Sequence record: MN850578.1
Length of the DNA stretch: 64,000 bases
Direction: 5' to 3' (one strand)
Origin: Escherichia phage nomo
Shown here: piece by piece, positions 28,342-55,500 of the stretch
Layout: each line of letters starts with the position of its first letter
Numbering within the stretch: the first letter of the stretch is position 1
Made by a program: the position numbers and the translations under genes
The notes under the pieces: model-generated
What the model was told of the DNA's origin: nothing
Databases searched by the model: none
What the model saw: only the letters and a program-made list of their open reading frames with translations

Positions 28342-28348
28342 CACTAGG

Positions 28349-28375
28349 CCCTGCCCGAAAGGGTAGGGCTTTTTG
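28349..28375 (+). terminator. rho-independent terminator
   Basis: gccctgccc-gaaa-gggtagggc then ttttt; near-identical copy at 38482. Confidence 0.65.
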
Positions 28376-42008: not shown

Positions 42009-42039
42009 TACTTGAAAATTCCTGGCATATCAAGTATAA

Positions 42040-42540
42040 GGGGGATTTCTAAAATGGATTTCCTCCTTTTGATATTTCACCGGGCTGGATATTTTAAAAT
42101 TCTTAGAAAATCAGAAAATGGATCGAAAACTAAAATGGATTTTTCAGAGTAGGCGCGACAAGCTGAATAACTCATCCTATCGTTTGCACCATATTCCAGG
42201 CCACCATTATAGATTTCCCACACATGCTAACCTCCCTCTACTAGAACTTCCTCCACTTACCCTTGACCTTCTATGGTAACAATCTAACCGCTATCTTGAA
42301 GTTGCGGTGCAGCTTTCCAGGTACTCGATCTACTTTTCATTTCAGGGCTTGGATTTTCTGAAAATTTTTCTCGATAAATTTCTCAGTACTCGATCTGTTT
42401 TTCGTCTTCTGAATCGGATTTTCTGGAAATCGTTCCGGCTCTCAACCTGAAATTTTTGGGGACGAAATCGATTTTTCGTTTTCAGAAATGGATTTTTAAA
42501 ATTTCTATATGGGAATATTTTAGTGGATACTATTTTATAG
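42040..42540. repeat. iteron-like direct-repeat region (non-coding)
   Basis: At least six copies of aaatggattt / cggattttctgg and two copies of caggtactcgatct / cagtactcgatct; no credible ORF. Confidence 0.6.
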
Positions 42541-42643
42541 TAAATTGTTACGGAGGGTAATTAGCGTGCTAATTAAATTTATTAAATGCGAGGAGTTCTC
42601 ATTTAGAATCTTGAATGATAATCATTCTCGTTTGCAGAATAAC

Positions 42644-42677
42644 GGGCAGGCCCGGTGATTGTCTCCCGGCCCCTGTT
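42644..42677 (+). repeat. conserved motif, copy A
   Basis: gggcaggcccggtgattgtctccc..cctgtt; degenerate copy at 42789-42806; inverted copy at 52271-52299. Confidence 0.6.
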
Positions 42678-43023
42678 GCCCCGGCTTGTTATTATAGTAT
42701 CACACAGGACAAAGAAAGCAAGGATTTTTTTTTGCATAAATTTTTAAATGATAATGATAACCGTTCTCATTTTATGCAGCGCTCATCCCTGGTGGTTGTC
42801 TCCCCCGTCACCGGTGCCTGCCGTCCTTTCGATAGGTATATTGTGCCACCTGTCGGGGCCGCTGTCAACACTTTTCAAAAAATTTTTCTAACCTGATGCG
42901 CTAACCGCTGCAACCTGGCGGGGCCAGCCTGGCAGGACCTAACTGACCAGGTGGGAGAGGGTGAAATCTTGCAAACCTGGTAGGCCCATGCTGTAGGGTA
43001 AACAATTGAAGAGGAGGTACAAA

Positions 43024-43161
43024 AATGAAAGGTAATGCTACTCACCTGGGAAATGTAGTGATTAATGATACAGAAGCGCGGGAACATAAAGAAGAGTACG
43101 AAAAAATGGTGGTTAACCTGGCGGGGGGCGGCAGGTGGATTCTATCATAAAAATAATTTAA
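43024..43161 (+). CDS. possible small protein (45 aa)
   Basis: Perfect AGGAGG 7 nt before ATG; below track threshold. Confidence 0.35.
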
Positions 43162-43169
43162 AATAATCG

Positions 43170-43198
43170 TTGACAACAAGGTTAATCATGGTATTATT
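43170..43198 (+). promoter_or_regulatory. sigma70-like promoter
   Basis: TTGACA, 17 bp, ATTATT. Confidence 0.5.
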
Positions 43199-43247
43199 AC
43201 CCTACAAGGTGAACAACACCGCACTAACCAGTAAAGAGGATAAATTT

Positions 43248-43445
43248 ATGAACGCATACGGGATCAAAGTACGTCGCAACACTCGCCAGGTGGTCACCGA
43301 TCAAATGGTTTGCCAGGTGGACGTAACCATCAACAACGGGCAAGGCCTTTATAAATTCCGTCGCGGTCAGAGCTATACCCGGCAACAGCTTAATCGTTGC
43401 GCCCTGACAAAAGGACAGATCAACCACTGGTTTAATAAAAAATAA
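43248..43445 (+). CDS. hypothetical basic protein
   Basis: ATG after aaagagga; track TTG start at 43170 is the promoter -35. Confidence 0.5.
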   Translation: MNAYGIKVRRNTRQVVTDQMVCQVDVTINNGQGLYKFRRGQSYTRQQLNRCALTKGQINHWFNKK

Positions 43446-43448
43446 GTA

Positions 43449-43477
43449 TTGACATATAGTCCGACACCAAATACACT
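43449..43477 (+). promoter_or_regulatory. sigma70-like promoter
   Basis: TTGACA, 17 bp, TACACT. Confidence 0.5.
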
Positions 43478-43509
43478 AAAAGCACAAAAGACACTAAGAG
43501 GATAAAATC

Positions 43510-43908
43510 ATGAAAACCACTACCTTTAATTTTGATAATGCGGACTTTTCTTTTTCTGATGTCAAGAACTACCGCCGTGATCGTGGATTTTACAAGGCTT
43601 ATAATCTGGTGGGCCTGGACGATGACAATAATTTGCACGAAGTAGCTGAGATCCGGTATTATGCCGCCGCCAGCGGGAACACTCACTACTGCGTGTTTTG
43701 GATTCACGACAACAAGAACAATAAGTACGGTTATACTGGCGGCAAGGCGAGCGGTCACGGTTACGATAAAGCTAACGCAGCACTTGAGAGCGCATTAAAT
43801 GCTATGGGGATCACTGCCGACGGCTGGATCTACGAAGAAGAGTTTTTGTCGGCACTTGCTGACCACCTGGGCTATAAAAAACACATTGTAACATGCGCCC
43901 ACGAATAA
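43510..43908 (+). CDS. hypothetical protein
   Basis: RBS aagagga. Confidence 0.55.
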   Translation: MKTTTFNFDNADFSFSDVKNYRRDRGFYKAYNLVGLDDDNNLHEVAEIRYYAAASGNTHYCVFWIHDNKNNKYGYTGGKASGHGYDKANAALESALNAMGITADGWIYEEEFLSALADHLGYKKHIVTCAHE

Positions 43909-43914
43909 AAATCA

Positions 43915-43942
43915 TTGACACGCTGCAAAATTTAAGTAAACT
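43915..43942 (+). promoter_or_regulatory. sigma70-like promoter
   Basis: TTGACA, 16 bp, TAAACT; followed by hairpin ggcgggaatgtttcccgcc (43953-43971). Confidence 0.45.
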
Positions 43943-43990
43943 AGACACAAAAGGCGGGAATGTTTCCCGCCAGCACAAAGGAAAAAGATC

Positions 43991-44386
43991 ATGAATAAGA
44001 ACGTACGCCGCATCATGAACGAACTGGCAAACGATGAAAAAATTATTGATATGCATTTGGTCAACATTTGCCGCCGTTGTGTAACATATAACAACCGCGC
44101 CGCAAAAGCGTGTGAGATGAACGCAAAAGGCACCTTAAAGCCCTTTCAGGTGGTTGTAAAATCTATAACTAGCGCAGCAGGCCAGGCGCAGGACCACAAC
44201 AACGAGAGCGCTAATATTGATCCGTCTTACGTAATGAAACGGATCCGGACTTGCAAGAATAAAGAGCAGGTATATAACGTCATAGATTGGCTGGACTCCC
44301 TGGGCGATGTGGTTTACAATAGGTTTTCTGCAGCTATCGAGATCCAGCTTGACAGATTGGACGGGAAAGTACTAAAAACTTATTGA
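43991..44386 (+). CDS. hypothetical protein
   Basis: ATG after aaaggaaaaag. Confidence 0.55.
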   Translation: MNKNVRRIMNELANDEKIIDMHLVNICRRCVTYNNRAAKACEMNAKGTLKPFQVVVKSITSAAGQAQDHNNESANIDPSYVMKRIRTCKNKEQVYNVIDWLDSLGDVVYNRFSAAIEIQLDRLDGKVLKTY

Positions 44387-44387
44387 G

Positions 44388-44434
44388 TTTATTTTTAGAT
44401 GGCCTTGACACCAGGGCCATCAATAAAGTAAACT
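44388..44434 (+). promoter_or_regulatory. repeated promoter/operator cassette, copy 1
   Basis: tttatttttagATGGCCttgacaccagGGCCATcaataaagtaaac; -35 TTGACA inside 6-bp inverted repeat; near-identical at 45010 and 48745. Confidence 0.55.
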
Positions 44435-44465
44435 AACCACAGTTGAGCGGAAAAGGAGGCTTAAA

Positions 44466-44585
44466 GATGAGCACTACACGCCAGCACACAAAGGTAACCA
44501 TCATCGTTTGCATCATTGGGTACATCCTGGCGCAAATGTTGATGGGTAGCGCCAACGGTGTCGCAAAATTTTTCTTAAACTTTTA
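44466..44585 (+). CDS. small hydrophobic peptide (39 aa)
   Basis: RBS aaaaggagg; MSTTRQHTKVTIIVCIIGYILAQMLMGSANGVAKFFLNF; single predicted TM helix. Confidence 0.4.
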
Positions 44586-44586
44586 A

Positions 44587-44614
44587 TTGACAAGCTAACT
44601 TAAATCGATATAAT
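44587..44614 (+). promoter_or_regulatory. sigma70-like promoter
   Basis: TTGACA, 16 bp, TATAAT. Confidence 0.6.
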
Positions 44615-44665
44615 AAGCACATAAACGGGAAAACTTCCCAGAACACACAAAAGGAGAAAAACACC

Positions 44666-45007
44666 ATGACTACTATGACCGCCTCAGAAAAAGCTATGCA
44701 GATCGCTGAACTGAAAAAACAGATCGCAGACCTTGAGAATAAGATCGATAACTTTGAAATCGACGAGGACAAGTACGACGAAAACTATGATGAATGGTTA
44801 GACGAGATCTACGGAGAAATTATGATCGGAAACATTTCTTTTCTTCCGTCGCGTATCCTCAAGGAGCTAGATCCTATCGCTTACCGCTGCGGATTTAGCG
44901 ACTACATCGACAGCCTGGATATTGAGGACGATGAAGAATACCAGGAATTACAGACAGAGTTAGAAGAAGCAAAAGAAGAGCTTGCGGAGCTGGAAGAAAA
45001 CGAGTAA
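44666..45007 (+). CDS. hypothetical acidic coiled-coil protein
   Basis: RBS aaaggag; 113 aa, Glu/Asp-rich. Confidence 0.55.
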   Translation: MTTMTASEKAMQIAELKKQIADLENKIDNFEIDEDKYDENYDEWLDEIYGEIMIGNISFLPSRILKELDPIAYRCGFSDYIDSLDIEDDEEYQELQTELEEAKEELAELEENE

Positions 45008-45009
45008 GC

Positions 45010-45054
45010 TTATTTTTAGATGGCCTTGACACCAGGGCCATCAATAAAGTAAAC
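45010..45054 (+). promoter_or_regulatory. repeated promoter/operator cassette, copy 2
   Basis: Identical core to copy 1. Confidence 0.55.
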
Positions 45055-45096
45055 TTTATACTGTTAACACTGAACTAATGCATAGGAGTTAAAACC

Positions 45097-45342
45097 ATGG
45101 CAGCACTAATCACCAAATATTATGCCCCTACCAACACCAAAAGCGCCCGTATCATGGTAAAAGGCTTCGGACGTAAAAAGGTGTACACCTGGGATTATGC
45201 CTTAGACACGGAAGACAACTACACCAACGCAATGACCGATTTTATTAATGAACTAAATAAGCAGATCTTGACAAGTTATAAAGTGACTGATATTGCTTAT
45301 ATAGGTGAAGGCGGGATCTGTTTTGTAGGCATTGTGAAATAG
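45097..45342 (+). CDS. hypothetical protein
   Basis: RBS aggag. Confidence 0.55.
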   Translation: MAALITKYYAPTNTKSARIMVKGFGRKKVYTWDYALDTEDNYTNAMTDFINELNKQILTSYKVTDIAYIGEGGICFVGIVK

Positions 45343-45416
45343 TTATTTTTTCGGTGGTCCTGGCTGCAGGGCCATCTATAAAGATAATTTATCAACACCA
45401 TGAAAGGAGAAAGTAC

Positions 45417-45770
45417 ATGATCAGCGGGGCTAGTTTTATTATTGGCGCTATTGCTACGGCTTTAATTGTAAACAAGATCCAATCTAAAAACGAAAAAGAT
45501 AGCAACGCGCTCACAGAATACCCATTTTGGGTATTCAACGACAACGAAGACTACATAATCAAGTACAAAGATGAGAGAGGCGACCAGGTAACACCGCGAC
45601 CGATCCCAGCTTACAAGATGCAGGAAACACTATACCGCCTAAAGGCCGGAGGCGCAAAGATCGTAGACTTTTGGGGATATGATTGCAAGGATCAGGAGGT
45701 CATAAAACGTCGTATCCGGGCGATTCAGGCAAATATTGAAATTAGTAAAGGGGAAATTTATGAAAATTAA
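45417..45770 (+). CDS. hypothetical membrane-anchored protein
   Basis: ATG after aaaggaga; N-terminal helix ISGASFIIGAIATALIV; preceded by a diverged cassette copy at about 45345-45395. Confidence 0.5.
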   Translation: MISGASFIIGAIATALIVNKIQSKNEKDSNALTEYPFWVFNDNEDYIIKYKDERGDQVTPRPIPAYKMQETLYRLKAGGAKIVDFWGYDCKDQEVIKRRIRAIQANIEISKGEIYEN

Positions 45771-45957
45771 TTTCGAAAAAATTGTAAAGCGCCCCCACGA
45801 TTCCGAAGAGCTGCCGGAACGCCGCCAGCGTAACAATAAACTGAATAAACCGAAAAGGTTCGGGAAGATCTGGAGGAATCACTATGATCGCAAATTACCG
45901 GGCCTGCTTTTGGAACGTGAACGACAGGCGGAACGATACCGCCACAAAGGCAAATAA
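45760..45957 (+). CDS. hypothetical basic protein
   Basis: ATG after aagggg, overlapping upstream stop; Arg/Lys-rich. Confidence 0.4.
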   Translation: MKINFEKIVKRPHDSEELPERRQRNNKLNKPKRFGKIWRNHYDRKLPGLLLERERQAERYRHKGK

Positions 45958-45965
45958 CAACCAAC

Positions 45966-45991
45966 GCCCCGCCATTGTGCGGGGCTTTTTA
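45966..45991 (+). terminator. rho-independent terminator
   Basis: gccccgc-cattgt-gcggggc then tttttattt. Confidence 0.7.
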
Positions 45992-46127
45992 TTTCTATCC
46001 TACGAATAGCGCCCCTGGTTGGCACCACAAACGCCACAAAAGCCCCTACCTATGCAATCCCCTTTCTTAGCCTGAAAACATCACCCAGGACCGTTTTATG
46101 GTGTTAAAAATATCTTTTATTTAAAGC

Positions 46128-46156
46128 TTGACACCTTGGAATCGCCTGGATATACT
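46128..46156 (+). promoter_or_regulatory. sigma70-like promoter
   Basis: TTGACA, 17 bp, TATACT. Confidence 0.6.
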
Positions 46157-46191
46157 AACCACATCAAAGCAAGAAGAAAGGAGTAAACGCC

Positions 46192-46452
46192 ATGCGTAAA
46201 TTAAAAAATTTTGATAAAGTCGATGTTGTCCTGAATAATTTTTACTACTGCAATAATAAGGCCGTTTGGTGGCGTGATAGTTCCACCGATAAAGTTAAAG
46301 CGCGCTTTCTCCAGGGGCACTGGCAAGGCCGCCCAGTGATTAAGATCCGGGGGCAATTGGTAGCGTTTAAAAATTGCCGCCGTGTTGATGACGTTGAAGA
46401 GATTCTAAACATTTTACGCCACAATAATTTAAAAAATAGTGTTGACAAGTAA
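46192..46452 (+). CDS. hypothetical protein
   Basis: RBS aaaggag. Confidence 0.55.
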   Translation: MRKLKNFDKVDVVLNNFYYCNNKAVWWRDSSTDKVKARFLQGHWQGRPVIKIRGQLVAFKNCRRVDDVEEILNILRHNNLKNSVDK

Positions 46453-46469
46453 GCCTCAATAAGTATACT
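46442..46469 (+). promoter_or_regulatory. sigma70-like promoter
   Basis: TTGACA, 16 bp, TATACT; followed by hairpin ggcgggaaaacttcccgcc (46480-46498). Confidence 0.55.
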
Positions 46470-46526
46470 TAAACACACAGGCGGGAAAACTTCCCGCCAC
46501 TAACAAAGAAAATAGGAGAAAATATC

Positions 46527-47150
46527 ATGACCACCGTTAACATTACCGCAGGTTACAATTTATCTTTCGACGTGCTGACCGACGAACAAAAAGAAAAAGC
46601 CGTTGAAATGGTCCGCGAAAGAGAAGAACACAGCGGGGATAACTTTTTTGCAGAAAGTGTAATTGAATACTATAAAGAATATGTTTTTCCAGAGTATGGC
46701 CTTGAAGATACCGAAGTACATTGGTCAGGCTTTTGGTGCCAGGGTGACGGCGCGTCAATCAGTGCTGAAAACGTGGATTTAGAAAAATTTTTGCGTAAAG
46801 TAAAGGCCCTGACCAAGTTCCGATCAATTCGTCACTTGTTCGGCACAATGCACGATGGCGAGTTATCAGCCAGTGTTGAGCGTGATCCATATAGCCGCTA
46901 TAGTCACGAAAACACTGTAAGCGGATACATTGATACCACCTGGCTAGATCTGACCGCCAAACAAGAAAACAAAGTGGAAGACTTGGAAGAGCTGATCACC
47001 GAGACGGTACGGGAGCTATCCCGCAAGGTTTACGTAGACCTGGAGGAGGCCTATCTTGAACAGTTTACTACCGAAAACCTGATCGGCCTTATTGAGGCCA
47101 ATGATTGGCGGTTTGATGTGGATGAATATGGCGAGATGACTTTTTCATAA
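46527..47150 (+). CDS. hypothetical protein
   Basis: RBS ataggaga; 207 aa. Confidence 0.55.
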   Translation: MTTVNITAGYNLSFDVLTDEQKEKAVEMVREREEHSGDNFFAESVIEYYKEYVFPEYGLEDTEVHWSGFWCQGDGASISAENVDLEKFLRKVKALTKFRSIRHLFGTMHDGELSASVERDPYSRYSHENTVSGYIDTTWLDLTAKQENKVEDLEELITETVRELSRKVYVDLEEAYLEQFTTENLIGLIEANDWRFDVDEYGEMTFS

Positions 47151-47158
47151 ATAAAGTG

Positions 47159-47186
47159 TTGCAATAACCTAAAAACCTGCTATATT
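47159..47186 (+). promoter_or_regulatory. sigma70-like promoter
   Basis: TTGCAA, 16 bp, TATATT; followed by hairpin ggggcaagacgtttgcccc. Confidence 0.5.
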
Positions 47187-47239
47187 AAAACTCAAGGGGG
47201 CAAGACGTTTGCCCCACACAAAACAAAGAGGAAAACATT

Positions 47240-47620
47240 ATGAAAAACACTACCAAGGCTATTGACACCGTTATGTTTAACCTGGTTACATTCCGTGAAG
47301 ATATGAAAGATCTTCCACGTGAAACAGTGTGCGATCACATTGAAAACTATCGCAAACTAATCAAAGAGTTGCCCCTAAAACGTGACCAGTATGCGGCTAA
47401 CGCTATGCTCAACGCCATGATCAAAAAGATGATCCAGTGTGATTTAACCCTGGCCTATGACTATGCGGGTGGTCGTTTTGCAGTATACAATCAGCCCGTG
47501 CCCGGTATGGGCACCACCGAAGAATTGCACGCGCTCAATCTAAAACAAGACGTATGGGATAACATGCCCCGCGTGGTGGTGTGGGCAGAAAGCGGAAAGA
47601 TTTACGGCGATAATTTTTAA
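47240..47620 (+). CDS. hypothetical protein
   Basis: RBS aaagagga. Confidence 0.55.
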   Translation: MKNTTKAIDTVMFNLVTFREDMKDLPRETVCDHIENYRKLIKELPLKRDQYAANAMLNAMIKKMIQCDLTLAYDYAGGRFAVYNQPVPGMGTTEELHALNLKQDVWDNMPRVVVWAESGKIYGDNF

Positions 47621-47630
47621 TCAGGTAACA

Positions 47631-47656
47631 GGCGGCATATTTGCCGCCTTATTGTT
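47631..47656 (+). terminator. rho-independent terminator
   Basis: ggcggc-atattt-gccgcc then ttattgtt. Confidence 0.6.
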
Positions 47657-47684
47657 AAACAGAACTGCAAAAGAGGTACATAGA

Positions 47685-48056
47685 ATGGAATTTATTATTT
47701 TGGCTGTAGTAGTTGCCTTGTTCAACGCCTGGATCGCTGGCAAGATGGGTAGATCCGCCTTTTTATGGTTTATTATATCTATTTTCCTGGGGGTGGTTGC
47801 AACTATTGTACTTGTTATCCTTGCAATTGTTGACAAGGGGAATAATAGAAAGGGTAAAGTATTTTCAGACCTGTACGACGCTCAAACGTTTGTCAACGCC
47901 TATTATAGTGATCTTCCAGTCTCCCTACGCTGCAGCCTGGCACAACAAGTTTTCGATGAGGCTAAAACCAGAGATCAAGCCCATGAGATATGTTTAACTG
48001 AGGCGGATCGCCTATTTGAGAGGAATAGAAAATATGTGGGCCAACCGTTTAAATAA
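47685..48056 (+). CDS. hypothetical membrane protein
   Basis: ATG after aaagaggt; two hydrophobic helices at N-terminus. Confidence 0.5.
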   Translation: MEFIILAVVVALFNAWIAGKMGRSAFLWFIISIFLGVVATIVLVILAIVDKGNNRKGKVFSDLYDAQTFVNAYYSDLPVSLRCSLAQQVFDEAKTRDQAHEICLTEADRLFERNRKYVGQPFK

Positions 48057-48275
48057 TGCCACGTTAATTAATCCCTTTAGTGAAGATTTGAAGCCAGCCG
48101 CCTGGCGTGATGGATTCAATAACGAACGCTTTATTTTCAAGCCTGATCTTGAGGAATTTTATAACAATGGATCGAACAACGACAGAGATAATTTTTCTTG
48201 TGGTGTGCGTAGTGATGGTACTCCTGGGGGCCATTGTAAACCACGTCGCTACTAACAGGGGGAAAGGGGGAGACG

Positions 48276-48395
48276 ATGACACCCAAGGATAAGCCCCGCA
48301 CCGATAAGGCGCGCCGTGTTATGGTATGGCTTGAGATCATCGCCCTTGAAATATTGTTAGGGGTAGGGATGTACTTTATCGCTGTAAGTAACTAA
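48276..48395 (+). CDS. small hydrophobic peptide (39 aa)
   Basis: ATG after gggggaga; MTPKDKPRTDKARRVMVWLEIIALEILLGVGMYFIAVSN; region 48016-48292 also holds overlapping alternative frames, unresolved. Confidence 0.35.
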   Translation: MTPKDKPRTDKARRVMVWLEIIALEILLGVGMYFIAVSN

Positions 48396-48399
48396 GAAC

Positions 48400-48427
48400 G
48401 GCCCCCCGATCATGGGGGCCTATCTTT
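48400..48427 (+). terminator. putative terminator followed by A14 tract
   Basis: ggccccc-cgatcat-gggggcc then tatcttt and 14 consecutive A (48428-48441). Confidence 0.4.
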
Positions 48428-48454
48428 AAAAAAAAAAAAAATTCTTCCGGGGTG

Positions 48455-48482
48455 TTGCAATCCGGTCCGGAATGTGGATAAT
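48455..48482 (+). promoter_or_regulatory. sigma70-like promoter
   Basis: TTGCAA, 16 bp, GATAAT; followed by hairpin ggggagacactcccc. Confidence 0.5.
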
Positions 48483-48541
48483 AACAATCAACGGGGAGAC
48501 ACTCCCCACCGCATAGACAAAGTTCCAAAAGGAGAAACAAA

Positions 48542-48742
48542 ATGAGCAACAATATCCGCGTTATTAACTTCAAAAAAGAAGAAAAAATTGCCGTGCTGAT
48601 TGACGGTCAAGAAATCTTTAAAGGTGATTATGAAGATCATCAAACGGCGATTAGTATCACTCGCGTGATTGGTTACCATAATTTTTACCCTCAAGGCGCT
48701 GAGGCAGCAGTAAAACGAATTAAAGAGATTGTAGGCCTGTAA
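48542..48742 (+). CDS. hypothetical protein
   Basis: RBS aaaaggag. Confidence 0.5.
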   Translation: MSNNIRVINFKKEEKIAVLIDGQEIFKGDYEDHQTAISITRVIGYHNFYPQGAEAAVKRIKEIVGL

Positions 48743-48744
48743 AA

Positions 48745-48790
48745 TTTATTTTTAGATGGCCTTGACTCCAGGGCCATCAATAAAGTAAAT
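48745..48790 (+). promoter_or_regulatory. repeated promoter/operator cassette, copy 3
   Basis: Same 46-bp cassette with one substitution in the -35 (TTGACT). Confidence 0.55.
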
Positions 48791-48833
48791 TTAAACCCTG
48801 TTAAAATAATCAGTGCAAAAAGGAGTAATGATC

Positions 48834-49133
48834 ATGTTTATCCAGGCTAATAATCTTTATTTCTTTGATGGTCAGATCGTAGACGGCGTGGAGGTGGAAA
48901 TCACCGGGTGCCCTGGCGGTCAGGTTATGACTTTTCGGAATAATGCCTTTGATGATTCTCATATCGTTATGAGAATGGAAGTTAGTAAGCTGGATGACAA
49001 GAAAACACTTATCGACTATTCCGTCAAAGATCATCCAGACTACCACATGATCTATGGTGATTTGTGCATTGTTGACCGTGACAAGGTGGGCGGCATTGTG
49101 ATCGCTATTGTGAACGATGTTTTCTCAAACTAA
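48834..49133 (+). CDS. hypothetical protein
   Basis: ATG 9 nt after aaaaggag. Confidence 0.5.
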   Translation: MFIQANNLYFFDGQIVDGVEVEITGCPGGQVMTFRNNAFDDSHIVMRMEVSKLDDKKTLIDYSVKDHPDYHMIYGDLCIVDRDKVGGIVIAIVNDVFSN

Positions 49134-49150
49134 TTTCAGCAGGTGATTTT

Positions 49151-49501
49151 ATGAAAGTAAAACTATATTACCTTAATGAGCTTAACCCCCTTGCCCAGGT
49201 CCGCGCCCTGGCTAATACCTTGATTTGTGAGAAATCTGTATATTGTGTTGAGCTTAACGCCATGCGTGAACGTCTCAAAGGTGGTTACTTTGACATCCAT
49301 GCTGCAATCAACGGCCTGAATATAGAATTTATCCGCTTACGTAACAGCCGCCAGAATCTGGCAAGAATGGAACAAGATCCGGCCCACCTTCGTAAGCTGG
49401 TTATTGAAAATCATCTGATGTTTAATGCCGATGGTGATTATTACCATTTTCACCGTAAACGCTGGTACCGTGGCGGCAATACAGGCAAGAATGCAAAATA
49501 A
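49151..49501 (+). CDS. hypothetical protein
   Basis: RBS aggtga. Confidence 0.5.
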   Translation: MKVKLYYLNELNPLAQVRALANTLICEKSVYCVELNAMRERLKGGYFDIHAAINGLNIEFIRLRNSRQNLARMEQDPAHLRKLVIENHLMFNADGDYYHFHRKRWYRGGNTGKNAK

Positions 49502-49538
49502 GGCCCCAGGCAGGGCCTGCAGCGATATAATCACATAA

Positions 49539-49570
49539 AGGCTATGCGGTTGCATGGCCTTTATTATTTT
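49539..49570 (+). terminator. rho-independent terminator
   Basis: aaggctatgc-ggtt-gcatggcctt then tattatttt. Confidence 0.55.
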
Positions 49571-49617
49571 AGCGTTACAGCGGCCCCAAGGCGCTTAAAA
49601 AATTTTTAAAGAAGTAC

Positions 49618-49645
49618 TTGCATCAAGTCCTACAATATGGATAAT
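49618..49645 (+). promoter_or_regulatory. sigma70-like promoter
   Basis: TTGCAT, 16 bp, GATAAT; followed by hairpin gggggcggccccc. Confidence 0.5.
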
Positions 49646-49702
49646 AGGACGTGTCAGGGGGGCGGCCCCCAATCATTAACCGGATAGATAGGAGTTAAAA
49701 TC

Positions 49703-49987
49703 ATGGCTATTGTCACCGTTGGCGATGTAGTGGAAATGGAAGCAAAATACTTAAAAGCGGGTATGCATATCCTACGGAATGATCAAGAATTGTTATTAAC
49801 GATGGTAGACTATAATCCCGGCCAGGATTATCCAAGCATCGACTACTTTTTTGAGTATGTTGATGAAGAATTGAAAGAGGATGAGGCTTATCAGGGTGAA
49901 TTCTGCAATTTCTTTTGCCCTGATGAGGTTGTAAAAGTTATCTATCAACCTGGAGTACCTTTCCCGCTGCACGCTATCAATAAATAA
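49703..49987 (+). CDS. hypothetical protein
   Basis: RBS ataggag. Confidence 0.5.
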   Translation: MAIVTVGDVVEMEAKYLKAGMHILRNDQELLLTMVDYNPGQDYPSIDYFFEYVDEELKEDEAYQGEFCNFFCPDEVVKVIYQPGVPFPLHAINK

Positions 49988-50041
49988 ACCTGGCGGGGCC
50001 GAAAAGGCCCCAATTATGAAAATAAAGAGAGGTAAATCATC

Positions 50042-50275
50042 ATGATGGAACAAATTAAACGCGCTGAGGCTATTAATGGCAATGTGATCTATTTTGTCAG
50101 CAAAAACGAAAAAGGCGTACCATATGCGGCGGTAATAGTACAACCTGACGGCGATTATTGGTTTACTGTATACGGATCTTATTCTTTCGGGCGTCCGGTT
50201 CATGATAGAATTTTGAAAGTAGCAAATCCGACCGGGAAAAATATCACAGCAGAAAAATTTTTTGAAAATAGTTGA
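50042..50275 (+). CDS. hypothetical protein
   Basis: RBS aagagagg; preceded by hairpin ggggccgaaaaggcccc. Confidence 0.5.
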   Translation: MMEQIKRAEAINGNVIYFVSKNEKGVPYAAVIVQPDGDYWFTVYGSYSFGRPVHDRILKVANPTGKNITAEKFFENS

Positions 50276-50299
50276 CATGACCATATAAGACTGTAATAT
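50272..50299 (+). promoter_or_regulatory. sigma70-like promoter
   Basis: TTGACA, 16 bp, TAATAT; followed by hairpin ggggggcaacaagcccc. Confidence 0.55.
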
Positions 50300-50351
50300 A
50301 TAAATCAAAGGGGGGCAACAAGCCCCACCAACCACAAAGAGGATAAAAATC

Positions 50352-50531
50352 ATGGCTATTATTGCAAAGACTGAGATCGTAGGCTTAGATTCTATTCTCC
50401 TCGCATATGAGGAAGCTATAGAAATGTATGTGGTTTCCTATGGTGAATATATCCGTGAATATAAATCTATTGATCTAGCTTTTGAATGTTATATTCGCCA
50501 GGTCAATAAAGCATATGATGATTATCGTTAA
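50352..50531 (+). CDS. small protein (59 aa)
   Basis: ATG after aaagagga; below track threshold. Confidence 0.45.
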   Translation: MAIIAKTEIVGLDSILLAYEEAIEMYVVSYGEYIREYKSIDLAFECYIRQVNKAYDDYR

Positions 50532-50613
50532 AATAGTTTGACAACAGTCAACAATCTGGTAAAGTGTACTACATAGCGCGGGAATACTTCCCGCCATTAA
50601 TGAGGGTAATTTA

Positions 50614-50751
50614 ATGAAAACTTTCAACGCAACAGCCTCGACAATTGGTTATATTATTACAGTACAAGCCGTGGATCTGGTAGCAGCAGCAAACAAGATT
50701 AAAAAGATGATTCCGCCAGGTAGTGAATTTTCCGTTTGGGAAGTAAAATAA
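50614..50751 (+). CDS. small protein (45 aa)
   Basis: ATG after gagggtaa; preceded by promoter-like TTGACA at 50538 and hairpin gcgggaatacttcccgc. Confidence 0.4.
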   Translation: MKTFNATASTIGYIITVQAVDLVAAANKIKKMIPPGSEFSVWEVK

Positions 50752-50754
50752 ATC

Positions 50755-50782
50755 TTGACAATAATTTATTACTTGATAGACT
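50755..50782 (+). promoter_or_regulatory. sigma70-like promoter
   Basis: TTGACA, 16 bp, TAGACT. Confidence 0.5.
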
Positions 50783-50834
50783 GTATTTCGTAGTGCGGGG
50801 CAATAAGGCAACGCCCATTAATGAGGGTAGAATC

Positions 50835-50939
50835 ATGTTAGAGAAAATTTTCACGGTTGTAGTAGTTGGCCTGGCATTATCGGTTGGATGGGTTGCAACT
50901 ATGGCTAACATGATCCTATCTTCCCACGGTATCGGTTAA
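50835..50939 (+). CDS. small hydrophobic peptide (34 aa)
   Basis: ATG after gagggtag; MLEKIFTVVVVGLALSVGWVATMANMILSSHGIG. Confidence 0.4.
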   Translation: MLEKIFTVVVVGLALSVGWVATMANMILSSHGIG

Positions 50940-50940
50940 A

Positions 50941-51165
50941 GTGAATCAAATGATCACGAATAAAACAGGTAAAACGGAATTCTTGCGCGGCTTGCAGGTC
51001 GGCAAGCCTGAGATCTGGCATTGCACTAAAACACCACGTGACGAAATGAAAGACTTCACCGCCACGCTGCAACGGGTAAAGATATCCATCACGCAGAAAA
51101 AGGCCTTGATAGTGGTGGAAGGTGAGATCCCTCAAACCGTTGTTATAGTTGAGCGTACAGCATAG
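50941..51165 (+). CDS. hypothetical protein
   Basis: ORF without clear RBS; start GTG 50941 or ATG 50950. Confidence 0.3.
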   Translation: MNQMITNKTGKTEFLRGLQVGKPEIWHCTKTPRDEMKDFTATLQRVKISITQKKALIVVEGEIPQTVVIVERTA

Positions 51166-51256
51166 TTTAATTTATACCGATACCCGAAAATTAACCAACA
51201 AAGCATAAACAGGCGGTTACCGCCGCCTTAAACGTAGCAGAAAGAGGATAGACACA

Positions 51257-51541
51257 ATGAAAAAGATGATCGCAGTGGTTGCCCTGGTTGTTGGACTTAA
51301 TGCGCCTGTAATGGCTAAAGAGCTGGCAAAAGAGGTTAATCTAACGGATATCCATGCCGTCAATCAAATCGGGGTTACTTATCGCTTATGCCTTGCCGCT
51401 AAAACTTTTAATGACGGTACAACAGAGTACTACGGATTCGAGGGTATCCGGTGCGGTGAGCTTGCTCGCGACCTTAAGGAAGATCCAGACCTGGAGGATC
51501 TACCCATAACCGTGAACGGTAAAGCTTACTTTAACCGTTAA
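51257..51541 (+). CDS. hypothetical secreted protein
   Basis: RBS aaagagga; signal-peptide-like MKKMIAVVALVVGLNAPVMA. Confidence 0.55.
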   Translation: MKKMIAVVALVVGLNAPVMAKELAKEVNLTDIHAVNQIGVTYRLCLAAKTFNDGTTEYYGFEGIRCGELARDLKEDPDLEDLPITVNGKAYFNR

Positions 51542-51690
51542 CCGTGAAAAAGATAATCATTACCTTGGGGATTGTGGCGGGATCGCTGGCGCTCTTTCCC
51601 CTTATGGTTAGATATGTGCTGATCAGTATTGTCCTGGTGGTCAGTGATCTACTAGAAACGGTTGGCACCTTGTTTTAAAGAGCGATAAAA

Positions 51691-51882
51691 ATGAATGTTG
51701 AACAAGTTAGAAAGGTATTGGCGGTACTGCGTTATCATAATCATTGCAAGGTGAAGAATGATCCTGATTATCTTGATTCATCCCTTGAAGAGGATACACT
51801 ACAAGCCATAAGCAACATGCAAGAATTGCTTAAGCGTATGACAGAGAAAAACCGACCGGACTACATAGGGGGTAAAATATGA
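51691..51882 (+). CDS. hypothetical protein
   Basis: RBS aaagag. Confidence 0.45.
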   Translation: MNVEQVRKVLAVLRYHNHCKVKNDPDYLDSSLEEDTLQAISNMQELLKRMTEKNRPDYIGGKI

Positions 51883-52190
51883 TCGCTATTACGCCAACCG
51901 TTTTAGATTGGTATCGGCAACGCATAGCGCCTCCGCTGGCTATCTTCAAAGATGCGGAAGCAAAACAACGCCGGATCTCAATACATGAGATCATCAACCT
52001 TAACGCTGGAGGCACACCATACCGCCCAGGACCTGGCCGTGAGATGGACAATACGTTAGCGATCCTGAAGATACGCCGTAAACGGTCCTCCCTTACGCTG
52101 GACTCATTACACACAATGCAGCCTCCGTTCCAGGTGACCGGGAAACGGATCGCCAGGTCCTGGACAAAGGCCAATGATCGGACCGTATAA
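51879..52190 (+). CDS. hypothetical protein
   Basis: ATGA overlap; RBS aggggggt. Confidence 0.45.
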   Translation: MIAITPTVLDWYRQRIAPPLAIFKDAEAKQRRISIHEIINLNAGGTPYRPGPGREMDNTLAILKIRRKRSSLTLDSLHTMQPPFQVTGKRIARSWTKANDRTV

Positions 52191-52270
52191 ATAAAAGTGT
52201 TTTGGTACTGATTTTGGGGTTGACTTGTTCGGCCCCTTTTGCTATTCTTATTAAACGGGCGGCACTTGGG

Positions 52271-52299
52271 AACAGGGGGAGACAATCACCAGGCCTGCC
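52271..52299 (-). repeat. conserved motif, inverted copy
   Basis: Reverse complement reads ggcaggcctggtgattgtctccccctgtt, matching 42644-42677. Confidence 0.6.
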
Positions 52300-52324
52300 T
52301 GTCATATAAGAACTATAAAAACCG

Positions 52325-52353
52325 TTGACATCTGCCATGGGGTGAGGTAACAT
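52325..52353 (+). promoter_or_regulatory. sigma70-like promoter
   Basis: TTGACA, 17 bp, TAACAT; followed by hairpin gggcaaaagtgccc. Confidence 0.5.
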
Positions 52354-52407
52354 TTATCTTGAAGGGGCAAAAGTGCCCACACAACAACCAGAAGAGAGGA
52401 AAACATT

Positions 52408-52680
52408 ATGTCAAGCTGGATTAATCAAGAAGTCGAATCACGTTTTAATGCTATTTGGGATCTCATCGAAAAAGAGGACGGAACATCAAGCCCTTATCTC
52501 AATAATCTTGAATTCCATTTCGTGGAAGCGATGAACGCAGAACATGATCACGAAGGTGGTGCGGATGAGTTCGCTAAAGGGTATGGCTTCAACAATGCCA
52601 ACGAAATGATCGAGGCGGTTGTACTCCAGGCTGAGGAAGATTATCAATTAAAAACGCTTGAATTCTGCCGCCGTAAGTAA
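52408..52680 (+). CDS. hypothetical protein
   Basis: RBS agagagga. Confidence 0.5.
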   Translation: MSSWINQEVESRFNAIWDLIEKEDGTSSPYLNNLEFHFVEAMNAEHDHEGGADEFAKGYGFNNANEMIEAVVLQAEEDYQLKTLEFCRRK

Positions 52681-52742
52681 TAAGATAATGACACGGGCCA
52701 AAAGGCCCACTAAACAAAAACCACATAAAGAGGAAAAACATC

Positions 52743-53006
52743 ATGAAACGTCTTGACCAGCTCAAACTAGTTCAATATATGGCTTATCGTGTTCTGGAAG
52801 TCCAGAAAGGTAGCAAAAAAGAGGTTTGCGAGAAAGCTTATAAGATCTTTACCCGCAAAAAAGATGACTGGATGCTACGCCAGACCAAAAAGGCTGACAT
52901 CTTGGGGTACCTGGAAGAAGAGATCCGACTTGAAGAACAAGAAGAGATCCGCCGTAGTGAGGCAGATTATCAGGCAGCTTGGGAAAACTGGATGAGCAAC
53001 AAATAA
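52743..53006 (+). CDS. hypothetical protein
   Basis: RBS aaagagga; preceded by hairpin gggccaaaaggccc. Confidence 0.55.
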   Translation: MKRLDQLKLVQYMAYRVLEVQKGSKKEVCEKAYKIFTRKKDDWMLRQTKKADILGYLEEEIRLEEQEEIRRSEADYQAAWENWMSNK

Positions 53007-53025
53007 TACAACAAGATGAACGGTC

Positions 53026-53050
53026 AGGGGCTTAAAGCCCCTTTCTTTTT
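53026..53050 (+). terminator. rho-independent terminator ending the plus-strand early block
   Basis: aggggc-ttaa-agcccct then ttctttttg. Confidence 0.7.
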
Positions 53051-55500
53051 GTCTTCTCTTTTCCTACCATAAACGGCCCTACCTGGCAAGTGGAATAATT
53101 GACGAGCCATCAATCCCACACACTGTACAAATATACATGGAAAATAACTATTGCATAATTTTTCATTGTGTGGTAGCAAGGCCATTTTTACACGTTTTTC
53201 CTTCCAAAATTGCACGTAATGCAGCATTTGCACAAAATTTAACCTGATGCATATCTTCAATAGCTTGTCAACAACTAAAAATCTTTATAAGTCATACACT
53301 TACATAACTACAAAAACGTTTTCTACGTGAAAAATCGAGTATAACTATAGCCGCCAGATCTCAGAATTTACGTACGCTCGCCATTCTATAGCCTGCTAAG
53401 CATTTATTCCAACCATAGAATAACTGAATAGTCAATACCTGCATAAAATAATTATTCGTGTAAACTGCATAACATAAATCGGCCCAGGTGTCAACATTTT
53501 TCGTAAACAGTCTGGAATTGTCACGTTAGGTTACCATAAGTAGAGAAATCTTTAGTCGTCTAATGTTTACTGTACGTTACTATATTAACTGAAATCATTA
53601 GATGACTAATAGAAAGATAAGAAATAATTAACAATACAATTATTTTATCTGTAACAATAAGGCAACTATGCAAACGAATGGCATGGCGCGACGGAGTCGC
53701 GACATAATATAAAAGCAGTAACCATCACCCCCGTGATAGTTTGTCTGCAAACTATTAATCAGATCATAGTTGCCTTGTATTTAGTTAATCATGACATAAC
53801 AAGCAAGGCAACTATAGATCTGCTAATAGTTGCCCTGCTTTTATATTATGTCATGCTAATTATAATCAGTGCGATTATTGTCATGTATAATTATTGTCAT
53901 GCAAACGAATGGCATGGCTGATTATCGGTGTGTAAACAGTCAATCATGTAAATGGTTAGCATGTGAACAATCAGGAATGTAAACAATCCAGTGTGTAAAC
54001 TAATAGGTGTGTAAAAGTGTCATGTTGTGTCAGTTAGGTCACATTATGTCAGACAAGTTTTTCTCCTCTTTGTCAAGTGCTGCATGAAAAATTTACAAGC
54101 TTGTATGGTAGCATTTTTGCGGCCCTGTTTACATTCAGGAGTGTATGTATAATCCTTGTTGTGTGGGCGTTTAGACGTCTGGACGGTCAGAAGTCTGCAG
54201 GTCAATATCTAATCTATTGGCTGCTAACTATATCCCCCACAAATAATAAGAAATATAATTGTTATGTGCGTAAACAGTAACCCATGTTATCAATCCCTGT
54301 ATGTATCGCCAGTTGTGCGCATAATGGGTATTATGTTAAATTGCCCGTAATGATAACTATTCTCACAATGATAGGTATTCTCATTCACCCCCACAAGATA
54401 GGTTGCAAATGTTGTGCCACTGTGTGAACGGCCTCACCTATTAATTTGCCTCACTGCCTCGATATTTGAGAATTGTTATAAGAATGAGAAGTATTCCCAT
54501 TCCGTCCGCCTGGCAGCACTCCAGTCGCTACGGCTCCTGACAGGGCAGCACTCCTGTAGGTCAGGTCAAAATCGTGGTAGAACTGGACCTGTTCGGATAT
54601 TTCTGGCTGACTCTTCAGGTCTGTGTGGGAAAAGCCAACCCCTCCGGCGGGGCAGGGGATATCTGCAGGAAAATTGCAGGTCAATTAAAAATTTACGTGG
54701 TGTATGAAGCGCTCTTCAGGCAAGGCATGTATTAGAGGATGAAACCCTCTTCAGGCAATGATATTTGTGGGTGGGATATTTGCTGGAAAGCCAGATATGA
54801 CGGGACTCCCGGCGGGGCAGGGGTAGTACAGACAGGGAAAATATGAGGATGTAATTGGGGAAATTGATCAGACAGGTAGAGTATGGAATATGTTACAGGT
54901 ATGTTAAATATGGAGGTTGAATATCTGTAGGATTTGTGTGTAAAATCAAAGACTTAAGGGGTGTTGTGGTATTTTCTATAAATAATTCAAGTTTAATAGG
55001 CAATATTTGTCTCTATCCGCTTTGTGTGGTAAACAGATTCAGATGAAATTGGTTTACAAGTGTATACATAATATACAAATTAAAGATACAAGAAACCCCC
55101 CTCCCCCCTCGGCTACCATTCACCTTTTCCTCTGACTGGTACTTAAACACTTATTCAGACTCTTCAGGTTATCACCCATATATCATATGGCAGTGACTGG
55201 TGTCCTCCGGCCCCTCTTTCGTCACCCGTCCGCTTCGCCATGCTAATGCCATAGCCAATGGTTCGGTTGTTCACCCTGTTCACTCAGGTGTATCTCCATA
55301 CCCCTTCAAACCGAAGAGAACAGAAAACCCGAATTACTCGGTAAAAGAAAAGAGAAGAACTTAATTTTATCAGGATAGGCAAGAATGTCAAGGCATGACT
55401 GCTCACTAAACAAGCAAACAGTCATGTGTGGAAGGTAAGTGATTGTGGTGGTGGGAAATTTAGTTGAAAGATGTGTTATAGGTGCGCTTCCAGCACTTTA
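53051..55500. repeat. 2.4-kb non-coding, AT-rich, repeat-dense region between convergent gene blocks
   Basis: No ORF with RBS; contains palindrome ggcaactatagatctgctaatagttgcc (53797-53824), inverted ggcaactat copies, direct repeats gcaaacgaatggcatgg (53660, 53891), GTAAACAG-type repeats, about 75-bp imperfect direct repeats with ccggcggggcagggg (54643, 54799) and ctcttcagg (x4). Confidence 0.7.

Follow-up and report, generated by a model that had tools for sequence, protein, structure and literature searches.

An array of promoter, stem-loop and small-gene cassettes in Escherichia phage nomo that probably resembles the promoter-early stem-loop system of T4-like phages

What holds together about 10 kb of small genes, promoters and short GC-rich hairpins in the genome of Escherichia phage nomo, and what could the hairpins do? 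We analyzed a 64,000-nucleotide (nt) stretch of this phage (MN850578.1; one strand, 5' to 3'), which we call the window and to which all coordinates refer unless another phage is named; the array in question occupies positions 43170 to 53050. The genome is that of a Vequintavirus (an rV5-like myovirus), and the region is 98% identical to Escherichia phages nimi and HdK5. Part of it is matched by 289 phage records, 70 of which cover at least 80% of the region. An initial annotation, made from the letters alone, had described a uniform array of promoter, hairpin and ribosome-binding-site cassettes ahead of co-regulated early genes. We found that the array is real and far exceeds chance, and that it quite probably represents an early expression and shuffling system akin to the promoter-early stem-loops (PeSLs) of T4-like phages. 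The annotation had overlooked both this nearest known system and the cassette-bounded gain and loss of genes. In the available passages of the rV5 genome paper (Kropinski et al.), the rightward block of small genes forms transcription unit '10-1-238-164', of which the array is the distal end, and 33 sigma70-type promoters and 20 terminators are predicted genome-wide; these passages make no mention of hairpins behind promoters (PMC3606486). Promoter clusters in the Vequintavirinae have been read as a likely early region (PMC7344957; PMC3606486).

We scored the + strand of 43100-53100 for sigma70 promoter-like sites and identified 13 with a score of at least 10/12, while the - strand had none. 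Dinucleotide shuffles of the same interval gave 1.81±1.33 such sites, with a maximum of 7. Perfect TTGACA hexamers were similarly skewed, with 17 on the + strand of the array region and 3 on the - strand. All but one of the 13 strong sites lie directly upstream of genes; the remaining site, at 46211, is intragenic. Four or five weaker sites with scores of 8-9/12 are also well placed (47159, 48455, 48762, 49618 and 52220), which brings the usable promoters to about 16-17 and bears out the earlier count of at least 15 near-consensus sigma70 promoters in about 10 kb. AT-rich stretches can be read upstream of the -35 boxes, for example aaaataatcgTTGACA, ttttatttaaagcTTGACA and gttaaaatagtTTGACA. 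The array holds 29 open reading frames (ORFs) on the + strand, with ATG starts and Shine-Dalgarno (SD) sites. Their number agrees with the expected 30 or so, while their lengths, 34-207 amino acids (aa), go beyond the range of 30-130 aa given before. At all 21 modules into which we divided the array, SD sites of the AAGGAG or AAGAGG type are found 5-11 nt ahead of the ATG, as the annotation had proposed.

Perfect GC-rich hairpins numbered 22 in 44-52 kb as compared to about 3 per 4 kb elsewhere, making them roughly three times denser than in the rest of the window. At ten promoters the hairpin begins 10-12 nt past the -10 box, and we refer to these as the main class. Such a hairpin accompanies 6 of the 13 strong sites of the array, compared with 3 of the 42 in the remainder of the window (Fisher p=0.003). 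The hairpins and promoters fell into the following groups:

Main-class hairpins (start positions), + strand: 43953, 44626 (weak), 46480, 47197, 48493, 49657, 50310, 50578, 50793 (weak), 52365
Promoters without a hairpin, + strand: 43170, 43449, 46128
Hairpins without a promoter, + strand: 47630, 49995, 51211, 52695
Five hairpins around or replacing the -35 box, + strand: 44398, 45019, 48755, the degenerate 45353 and the composite 52216

The typical association of a promoter with a hairpin was thus found in about half of the modules, and the supposedly uniform architecture resolved into several classes. Two of the three hairpins that had been quoted as typical (ggggccgaaaaggcccc at 49995 and gggccaaaaggccc at 52695) have no promoter upstream. 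Most of the hairpins, namely the ten behind promoters and the four or five around -35, had predicted stabilities of -6.8 to -16.4 kcal/mol, with the weak 44626 at about -4 to -5.5. When the predicted 5' untranslated regions (UTRs) were folded, as the annotation had suggested, a 5'-proximal hairpin was obtained with z-scores of -2.1 to -5.2 in 7 out of 9 (at or below -2.4 in 6), and the SD region and leader were left unpaired.

We compared the cassette geometry in 47 cassettes from the window, FV3, phi92, phAPEC8 and PVP-SE1. The gap that separates the -10 box from the first base pair of the stem was 9-12 nt in 29 of 31 cassettes of these five phages, with a mode of 10, and the interval between hairpin and ATG was mostly 17-25 nt. 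Position 7 after the -10 box was a C in 22/29 and position 8 a purine in 26/29. Since this is the usual pyrimidine(-1)/purine(+1) context, the hairpin is predicted to start at about +3 to +6, leaving 2-5 unpaired nt at the 5' end. The promoter-hairpin distance is fixed despite differing intervening sequence, suggesting that the hairpin sits as near the 5' end as the open complex allows. The location at transcript 5' ends that had been assigned to all the hairpins therefore agrees with the geometry of the ten main-class cassettes and does not hold for the four promoterless hairpins and the five around -35. The 12 nt downstream of the hairpin are 52% A and 13% T, and the 8-nt tail past the cassette hairpin contains 1.3 U on average. 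The U-tract of an intrinsic terminator is present only at 45966, 49535, 52216 and 53026, and weakly at 47630. With a predicted position inside their own 5' UTR and a U-poor tail, the main-class hairpins are unlikely to terminate transcription, and we do not take them for intrinsic terminators on the sense strand.

The same geometry recurs in PVP-SE1 (Seunavirus), in phi92 and phAPEC8 (Stephanstirmvirinae) and in the jumbo phage 121Q (Asteriusvirus), where the cassettes are, if anything, more regular than in the window. The cassette of phi92 and phAPEC8 reads TTGACA-N16/17-TAAnAT, gtatcacata(g), GGCGGCAATAGTGCCGC or GGCGGGAAATGGTTTCCCGCC, an A-rich leader, aagagag and ATG. In 121Q (348 kb), a stretch of 50 kb yielded 17 cassettes, whose gaps measure 10-13 nt; some of their hairpins are near-identical to those of phi92. 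PVP-SE1 has, in addition, a PeSL-like class with the hairpin in the spacer and a class with the hairpin over the -10 box. A GGGAA-NNN-TTCCC core recurs in the window and in phi92, phAPEC8, PVP-SE1 and 121Q. Annotators had noticed the motif; in the literature outside the J Virol genome papers of PVP-SE1, phi92 and phAPEC8, we found no interpretation of it. The GenBank record of phAPEC8 labels hairpin 20-mers as 'putative promoter determined with PHIRE', placed right after 'host dependent promoter' (556-575, 937-956, 1787-1806 and 3202-3221 of the segment compared). The HdK5 record labels several cassette hairpins 'terminator', for example 2284-2302 of the compared segment. For the main class, both the 'terminator' and the 'phage promoter (PHIRE)' labels are probably wrong.

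The nearest known system is that of the PeSLs, which consist of an AT-rich stretch, a sigma70 early promoter, a polyG/polyC stem-loop and an SD-ATG, and which flank ORFans in hyperplastic regions (PMC2839356; PMC4122927). They have been described in the T4-like phages RB49/phi1, PST/T4 and nt-1/KVP40 (Arbiol et al. 2010, PMC2839356; Comeau et al. 2014, PMC4122927). Reporters have demonstrated both promoter and terminator activities of PeSLs, and recombination between PeSLs deletes, inserts and circularises modules (PMC2839356; PMC4122927). The elements of the window share with PeSLs the repeated intergenic cassettes of ~70-100 bp, with an AT-rich stretch, a near-consensus sigma70 promoter, a stem-loop of a G-run and a C-run, and an SD with ATG. 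Like PeSLs they are located in a variable, ORFan-rich region and mark the boundaries at which close relatives differ by inserted, deleted or swapped genes. PeSL-like positional classes occur in the window as well, namely stem-loops around -35 (44398, 45019 and 48755) and a terminator/promoter composite (52216). On the other hand, PeSLs belong to the Straboviridae, whereas the present cassettes occur in Vequintavirinae, Stephanstirmvirinae and Asteriusvirus. The published stem-loops, in five positional classes, precede the transcription start, whereas only 4-5 elements here do so (44398, 45019, 45353, 48755 and 52216). Those of PST and nt-1 lie 'just upstream of the promoter' (PMC4122927), and when we checked the RB49 sequence we found the stem-loop in the -35/-10 spacer (TTGACAggggatcaccgatcccctATACT), outside its own transcript, with a U-rich -10 box after it. 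The main class here lies 10-12 nt downstream of the -10 box, at a predicted +3 to +6, and has a U-poor tail. As the stem-loop would have moved into its own transcript, the PeSL logic of 'terminate, then re-initiate' cannot be transferred to these cassettes. We found no report of PeSLs outside T4-like phages in the literature; the array would represent PeSL-like cassettes in non-T4 phages, with the stem-loop apparently shifted into the 5' UTR.

A PeSL-like role would make the hairpins attenuators or terminators that damp read-through and the genes' own transcription, the early products being potentially toxic. In a reporter assay the stem-loop of PeSL211/210 cut lacZ expression as much as rrnB T1 (PMC2839356), the HdK5 annotators called several of the hairpins terminators, and the tails at 47630, 52216, 45966, 49535 and 53026 contain U. 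However, the tails of the 14 cassette hairpins behind the low U average given above are A/C-rich, and in ten cassettes the hairpin lies past its own predicted start, so that termination there would silence the very gene served. A stem-loop upstream of or in the promoter, as in T4-like phages, suits a terminator, whereas the rV5-type position does not. We therefore consider this explanation unlikely.

Many strong host-type promoters on early ORFan modules are also a feature of the SPO1 terminal-redundancy module, the T4 early Pe units and the T5 pre-early/early regions; we know of no sequence or cassette homology between these modules and the window. If the promoters of the array are read by unmodified host RNA polymerase, early expression would follow. 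We infer early genes under host sigma70 promoters, as the initial annotation did, from the near-consensus promoters on one strand, the published early-region reading and a homologue of the T7 early protein gp1.1 within the array.

The individual elements of the array are given below in order:

43170-43445, + strand: module 1; promoter 43170-43197 (TTGACA-16-TATTAT, TG-extended); only a weak stem at 43208-43220 (5' UTR fold z -0.9); gene 43248-43445 (65 aa)
43449-43908, + strand: module 2; promoter 43449-43477 (TTGACA-17-TACACT); no hairpin; gene 43510-43908 (132 aa)
43915-44386, + strand: module 3; promoter 43915-43942; 5' UTR hairpin 43953-43971 (GGCGGGAATGTTTCCCGCC; -13.1 kcal/mol, 10 nt past the -10 box, z -3.9); gene 43991-44386 (131 aa)
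44398-44586, + strand: module 4; hairpin 44398-44421 (GATGGCC-TTGACACCAG-GGCCATC) with the -35 box in its loop (RNA fold z -5.4); promoter 44405-44434; gene 44467-44586 (39 aa)
44587-45007, + strand: module 5; consensus promoter 44587-44614 (12/12); weak hairpin 44626-44641 (z -1.4); gene 44666-45007 (113 aa)
45019-45342, + strand: module 6; -35-enclosing hairpin 45019-45042; promoter 45026-45055; gene 45097-45342 (81 aa); a ~60-bp repeat is common to this module, 44390 and 48745
45353-45957, + strand: module 7; degenerate -35-enclosing hairpin 45353-45376, -35 box lost; genes 45417-45770 (117 aa) and 45760-45957 (65 aa)
45966-45985, + strand: intrinsic terminator, GCCCCGCCATTGTGCGGGGC then TTTTTATTT; labelled terminator in HdK5
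46128-46452, + strand: module 8; promoter 46128-46156; no hairpin; gene 46192-46452 (86 aa)
46442-47150, + strand: module 9; promoter 46442-46469; 5' UTR hairpin 46480-46498 (GGCGGGAAAACTTCCCGCC; z -5.2); gene 46527-47150 (207 aa)
47159-47620, + strand: module 10; promoter 47159-47186 (TTGCAA-16-TATATT, TG-extended); 5' UTR hairpin 47197-47215 (z -3.0); gene 47240-47620 (126 aa)
47630-48395, + strand: module 11; promoterless hairpin 47630-47649 (tail TATTGTT; labelled terminator in HdK5); genes 47685-48056 (123 aa), 48034-48255 (73 aa) and 48276-48395 (39 aa)
48400-48420, + strand: terminator-like hairpin, GGCCCCCCGATCATGGGGGCC then an A-run
48455-48742, + strand: module 12; promoter 48455-48482 (TTGCAA-16-GATAAT); 5' UTR hairpin 48493-48507 (z -3.2); gene 48542-48742 (66 aa)
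48755-49501, + strand: module 13; -35-enclosing hairpin 48755-48778; promoter 48762-48791; genes 48834-49133 (99 aa) and 49151-49501 (116 aa)
49501-49564, + strand: hairpins 49501-49518 and 49535-49564; a T-run comes after the latter, which would act as a terminator
49618-49987, + strand: module 14; weak promoter 49618-49645 (TTGCAT-16-GATAAT, 8/12); hairpin 49657-49670, 11 nt past the -10 box; gene 49703-49987 (94 aa)
49995-50275, + strand: module 15; promoterless hairpin 49995-50011 (GGGGCCGAAAAGGCCCC), 7 nt after the upstream stop codon, with TTTTC as its loop in phage 203; gene 50042-50275 (77 aa)
50272-50531, + strand: module 16; promoter 50272-50299; 5' UTR hairpin 50310-50329 (z -2.8); gene 50352-50531 (59 aa)
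50538-50751, + strand: module 17; promoter 50538-50565; 5' UTR hairpin 50578-50594; gene 50614-50751 (45 aa)
50755-51165, + strand: module 18; promoter 50755-50782; weak, branched hairpin 50793-50818 (z -0.55), also present in phi92 and phAPEC8; genes 50835-50939 (34 aa) and 50950-51165 (71 aa)
51211-52190, + strand: module 19; promoterless hairpin 51211-51228; genes 51257-51541 (94 aa), 51544-51678 (44 aa), 51691-51882 (63 aa) and 51879-52190 (103 aa)
52216-52248, + strand: terminator/promoter composite; the loop of hairpin GGGGTTGACTTGTTCGGCCCC contains the -35 box TTGACT, and a spacer with a T-run leads to the -10 box TATTCT; the HdK5 counterpart (GGGCTTGCAATGGTCCTGttttttgttatactt) also has the hairpin, -35 box in the loop, T-run and -10 box
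52325-52680, + strand: module 20; promoter 52325-52353; 5' UTR hairpin 52365-52378 (z -2.45); gene 52408-52680 (90 aa)
52695-53006, + strand: module 21; hairpin 52695-52708 (GGGCCAAAAGGCCC), no convincing promoter; gene 52743-53006 (87 aa)
53026-53042, + strand: intrinsic terminator closing the array, AGGGGCTTAAAGCCCCT then TTCTTTTTGT

We compared the array between relatives and found that genes come and go at these cassettes. Relative to the window, nimi has one extra module (promoter, hairpin GGCGGCAATGATGCCGC, leader and a 64-aa-type ORF) at the promoter of module 17. It is flanked by a direct repeat, TAGTTTGACAACA, which is the -35 box of two neighbouring cassettes (window 50531-50538, compared with segment 39071-40393 of nimi); this is the product that recombination between adjacent cassettes would produce. 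The extra ORF shares 95% identity with phi92 gp243 and FV3 ORF162, and the same cassette stands ahead of it in both phages. Gene 49151-49501 is missing in FV3, JES2013 and V18. The genes at 51691 and 51879 are missing in several of eight Vequintavirus genomes, the right boundary being the end of hairpin 52216-52236; HdK5, FV3 and others lack 51879-52190. The product gene at 51691-51882 has 82-87% nucleotide identity to a gene of the 121Q-like Asteriusvirus jumbo phages of ~350 kb. A segment from 50277/50581 to 50791/50893 is replaced, and its edges fall at a -35 box, in the gap that separates a -10 box from its hairpin, and immediately ahead of a hairpin. The replacement breakpoints at 50277, 50575-50581, 50791 and 52237 are in or at the edges of cassette elements, and the replacements in FV3 bring in phi92-type cassettes.

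The hairpins themselves evolve rapidly. Among orthologues at 92-98% identity the flanks are nearly constant while the hairpins vary. Hairpin 47197 had 7 variants in 8 genomes, all of which fold at -8.6 to -14.4 kcal/mol, and a fold of -5 kcal/mol or below was obtained for 31 of the 35 orthologue variants in total. The G-runs in the stems of 49657 and 50310 differ in length between genomes. In at least four cases the loop is exactly reverse-complemented between orthologues with the same stem and flanks:

43953, + strand: loop TGT/ACA
47197, + strand: loop GACGT/ACGTC
49995, + strand: loop GAAAA/TTTTC
51211, + strand: loop TTACCG/CGGTAA

Judged from these orthologues, the inversions are the mark of palindrome-driven template switching, and the hairpins are mutational hot spots. 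It is conceivable that the hairpins have no role in expression and are DNA palindromes that persist as recombination and template-switch hot spots and are carried along with the exchange unit. The loop inversions and the changes in G-run length are typical of template switching, and an absence of strand asymmetry in G-U pairs (see below) is also in keeping with such palindromes. However, the start of the hairpin is fixed at 9-12 nt past the -10 box even though the intervening sequence differs, hairpins are confined to cassette positions and lacking at the remaining promoters of the window, and the nimi junction is in a -35 box and not in a hairpin. Moreover, folds of the sense strand were more stable than those of the antisense strand in 34 of 45 cases (Wilcoxon p=7e-4), and loops on the sense strand were purine-rich (A71 G52 vs T35 C22). 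The fold bias and the purine-rich loops may be weak signs of selection on the sense RNA. Palindromes without a role in expression are, in our estimate, a decidedly improbable explanation.

The loop inversions also bear on the possibility that a protein recognises the hairpins, in the form of RNA or of DNA palindromes located at +3 to +25. Candidates would be a phage-encoded repressor of the early genes, a translational repressor or an N/boxB-like antiterminator. The recurrent GGGAA-NNN-TTCCC core would fit a common ligand, and boxB-like hairpins such as GGGGCC-GAAAA-GGCCCC resemble lambda nut sites in having short GC stems and A-rich loops of 4-5 nt just past early promoters. The GATGGCC-N10-GGCCATC repeat around -35, of which there are three copies and one degenerate one, is nearly invariant across 8 genomes and could equally be an operator. 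On the other hand, the stems are diverse between cassettes (GGCGGG, GGGGC, GGGCC, GGGGAG and AGGCGG), and an inverted loop, such as GAAAA turned into TTTTC, is not read strand-specifically, and this speaks against recognition of the loop by a protein in the way that N recognises boxB. The loops also differ from those of nut sites in being variable, no N-like protein was identified, and none of the 29 products matched a DNA- or RNA-binding family. The + strand of the array had no boxA-like motif (YGCTCTTWA), which together with the inverted loops led us to reject N/boxB antitermination. MAFFT and RNAalifold gave no consensus structure for 33 cassette hairpins, because stem lengths differ. In Rfam 15 the window had no match at the gathering score, the sole sub-threshold match (E<=1) reaching 36.8 bits against a gathering score of 94.4. 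We judge a protein recognition site to be about as improbable as an inert palindrome, and the shared regulatory RNA element that the annotation had envisaged is disfavoured by these comparisons.

The array is, on balance, probably best explained as a hyperplastic ORFan expression array of PeSL-type regulatory cassettes, in which the hairpin would be an RNA stability or insulation element and the cassettes would provide homology for recombination. A cassette of ~80 bp would comprise an AT-rich stretch, a sigma70 promoter, a GC-rich stem-loop, a U-poor A-rich leader and an SD with ATG, and would serve 1-4 small genes. The main-class stem-loop at ~+3 to +6 would place a structure near the 5' end of the cassette's own mRNA and thereby give stability and insulation. 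The stem-loop might also act as a barrier to 3' exonucleases on read-through mRNA of the upstream gene, a role that would also explain the promoterless hairpins. The repeated cassettes could serve as DNA homology through which whole promoter-hairpin-RBS-ORF (ribosome-binding site, RBS) modules are inserted, deleted or swapped among relatives and between phage lineages.

For the hairpin alone, we propose RNA stability or insulation only tentatively, at somewhat less than even chances. Stabilising stem-loops at mRNA 5' ends were reportedly described by Emory et al. in 1992 and by Bouvet and Belasco in 1992. The limit for such a hairpin is about 2-4 nt from the transcript 5' end. Like the stabilisers of ompA, papA and the T4 gene 32 leader with its CUUCGG hairpin, the main-class cassettes have a hairpin near the predicted 5' end followed by an unstructured leader and a strong RBS; they differ in that the start is predicted, that the 2-5 unpaired nt are at or above what RppH and RNase E need, and that hairpins also occur without promoters. 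Hairpins at the 5' end stabilise E. coli mRNAs (references in PMC3997798) and T4 gene 32 mRNA (PMC8948821). The presence of a Srd-like gene in the window fits a role in RNA stability, because T4 Srd stimulates the attack of RNase E on host mRNA (Qi 2015, as cited in PMC4980113).

Several observations weigh against this explanation of the array and its hairpins. RppH and RNase E need at least 2 unpaired 5' nt and prefer at least 3 (PMC8833179); the predicted starts leave mostly 3-4, so that 5' protection would be partial unless the start is nearer the hairpin. Scanning by RNase E is hardly impeded by a simple internal stem-loop (PMC11194081), and the PeSL stem-loop was a strong terminator in its reporter assay (PMC2839356). 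Three strong promoters (43170, 43449 and 46128) lack a hairpin. The number of G-U pairs was 10 in the sense fold and 12 in the antisense fold; the strands thus show no asymmetry that would point to selection on the sense RNA as opposed to a DNA palindrome. Any gene insertion or deletion that leaves a viable phage is expected to have intergenic breakpoints, so that their association with cassettes is strong only for nimi and FV3. Transcript timing or 5'-end data for rV5-like phages (Vequintavirinae) were not found in the literature.

One further explanation is that the hairpins are intrinsic terminators of the opposite strand that shield the array from antisense transcription. Several hairpins of the window have - strand tails containing T, for example GGCGGGAAACATTCCCGCC-TTTTGTGT, and the antisense tails average 3.4 T in 8 nt. 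However, this T-richness arises because the segment between the -10 box and the hairpin is A-rich, and in phi92, phAPEC8 and FV3 the 5' flank 'cacatag' gives the antisense tail CTATGTG, which has no U-tract. Taken with the lack of any promoter-like site of at least 10/12 on the - strand of the array, these phi92-type flanks led us to reject antisense termination, which we regard as very improbable.

A bolder version of the stability and insulation account is that a hairpin at ~+4 would be a 'self' mark spanning phage lineages. Lying as near the 5' end as the open promoter complex permits and backed by a U-poor leader, it would allow early mRNAs of rV5-, phi92-, PVP-SE1- and 121Q-like phages to escape RNase E stimulated by the Srd-like protein of the phage itself; the 3' end of the upstream cistron would be capped, and the cassette of ~80 bp would form a mobile 'express and protect' unit through which ORFans pass from one large coliphage to another, unrelated one. 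We hold this to be rather unlikely. If the PeSL-like reading of the array is right, PeSL-type mobile cassettes would not be peculiar to T4-like phages; large virulent enterobacterial phages would use them generally to take up, express and exchange small accessory genes, among which anti-defence and host-takeover functions are being discovered. The rV5-type geometry would offer a natural test of the effect of a near-5'-terminal stem-loop on phage mRNA where the phage manipulates RNA decay.

We also searched the products of the array for known families. All 29 belong to PHROG families labelled 'unknown function', and the earlier statement that no product falls in a recognised family was correct for 28 of them. 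The function in host takeover or anti-defence that the annotation had suggested for these genes is conjectural. The exception is the 65-aa product of 45760-45957, which matched Pfam PF08200 (T7 gp1.1) with an E value of 1.2e-10, the sole Pfam match among the 29. PDB sequence searches with four array ORFs gave no match for two and only matches at E 0.14-0.67 for the others, the best being 0.14. The 207-aa product of 46527-47150 had a confident predicted fold, with a predicted local distance difference test (pLDDT) score of 87.5, and its invariant residues are G58, G68, F69, Q72, G73, D74, G75, A76, R119, Y125, H127, R162, Y169 and L172; the modelled structure had no significant neighbour in the PDB and none that was convincing. 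Outside the array, the Srd-like protein (325 aa, rV5 gp11 homologue) is encoded at 15099-16073 on the - strand, adjoining divergent promoters at ~16.1 kb. Its PHROG matches include 'decoy of host sigma70' (3.3e-13) and 'Srd anti-sigma factor' (2.3e-10), the best match being a family labelled 'HNH endonuclease'.

The array is bounded by non-coding DNA on both sides, ~1 kb upstream (42010-43020) and ~2.4 kb downstream (53050-55400). The upstream segment holds three tandem repeats of 65-74 bp at 42311-42496 and the motif gaatcattctcgtttgcagaataacgggcagg, which recurs upstream of the PVP-SE1 array; this segment may be an origin or a regulatory region. The downstream segment lies between the array terminator and convergent - strand genes and is rich in repeats (gtgtgtaaac, ggcaactat and attgtcatg). 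It corresponds to the 'non-coding' box of rV5, and the HdK5 record begins within it. The phi92 array stops ~1.1 kb short of the right terminal repeat of that phage. Within the array, a conserved non-coding stretch at 52250-52320 follows the 52216 composite and is present in phAPEC8 as well (~4340-4400 of the segment compared); it could be a short transcript, with a weak fold (z -1.4). Far from the array, at 28297-28370, a hairpin with a T-run (ggccctgcccgaaagggtagggcttttt) lies no more than ~25 nt behind a strong promoter (TTGACA-17-TACAAT), an arrangement unlike the array cassettes that may be an attenuator.

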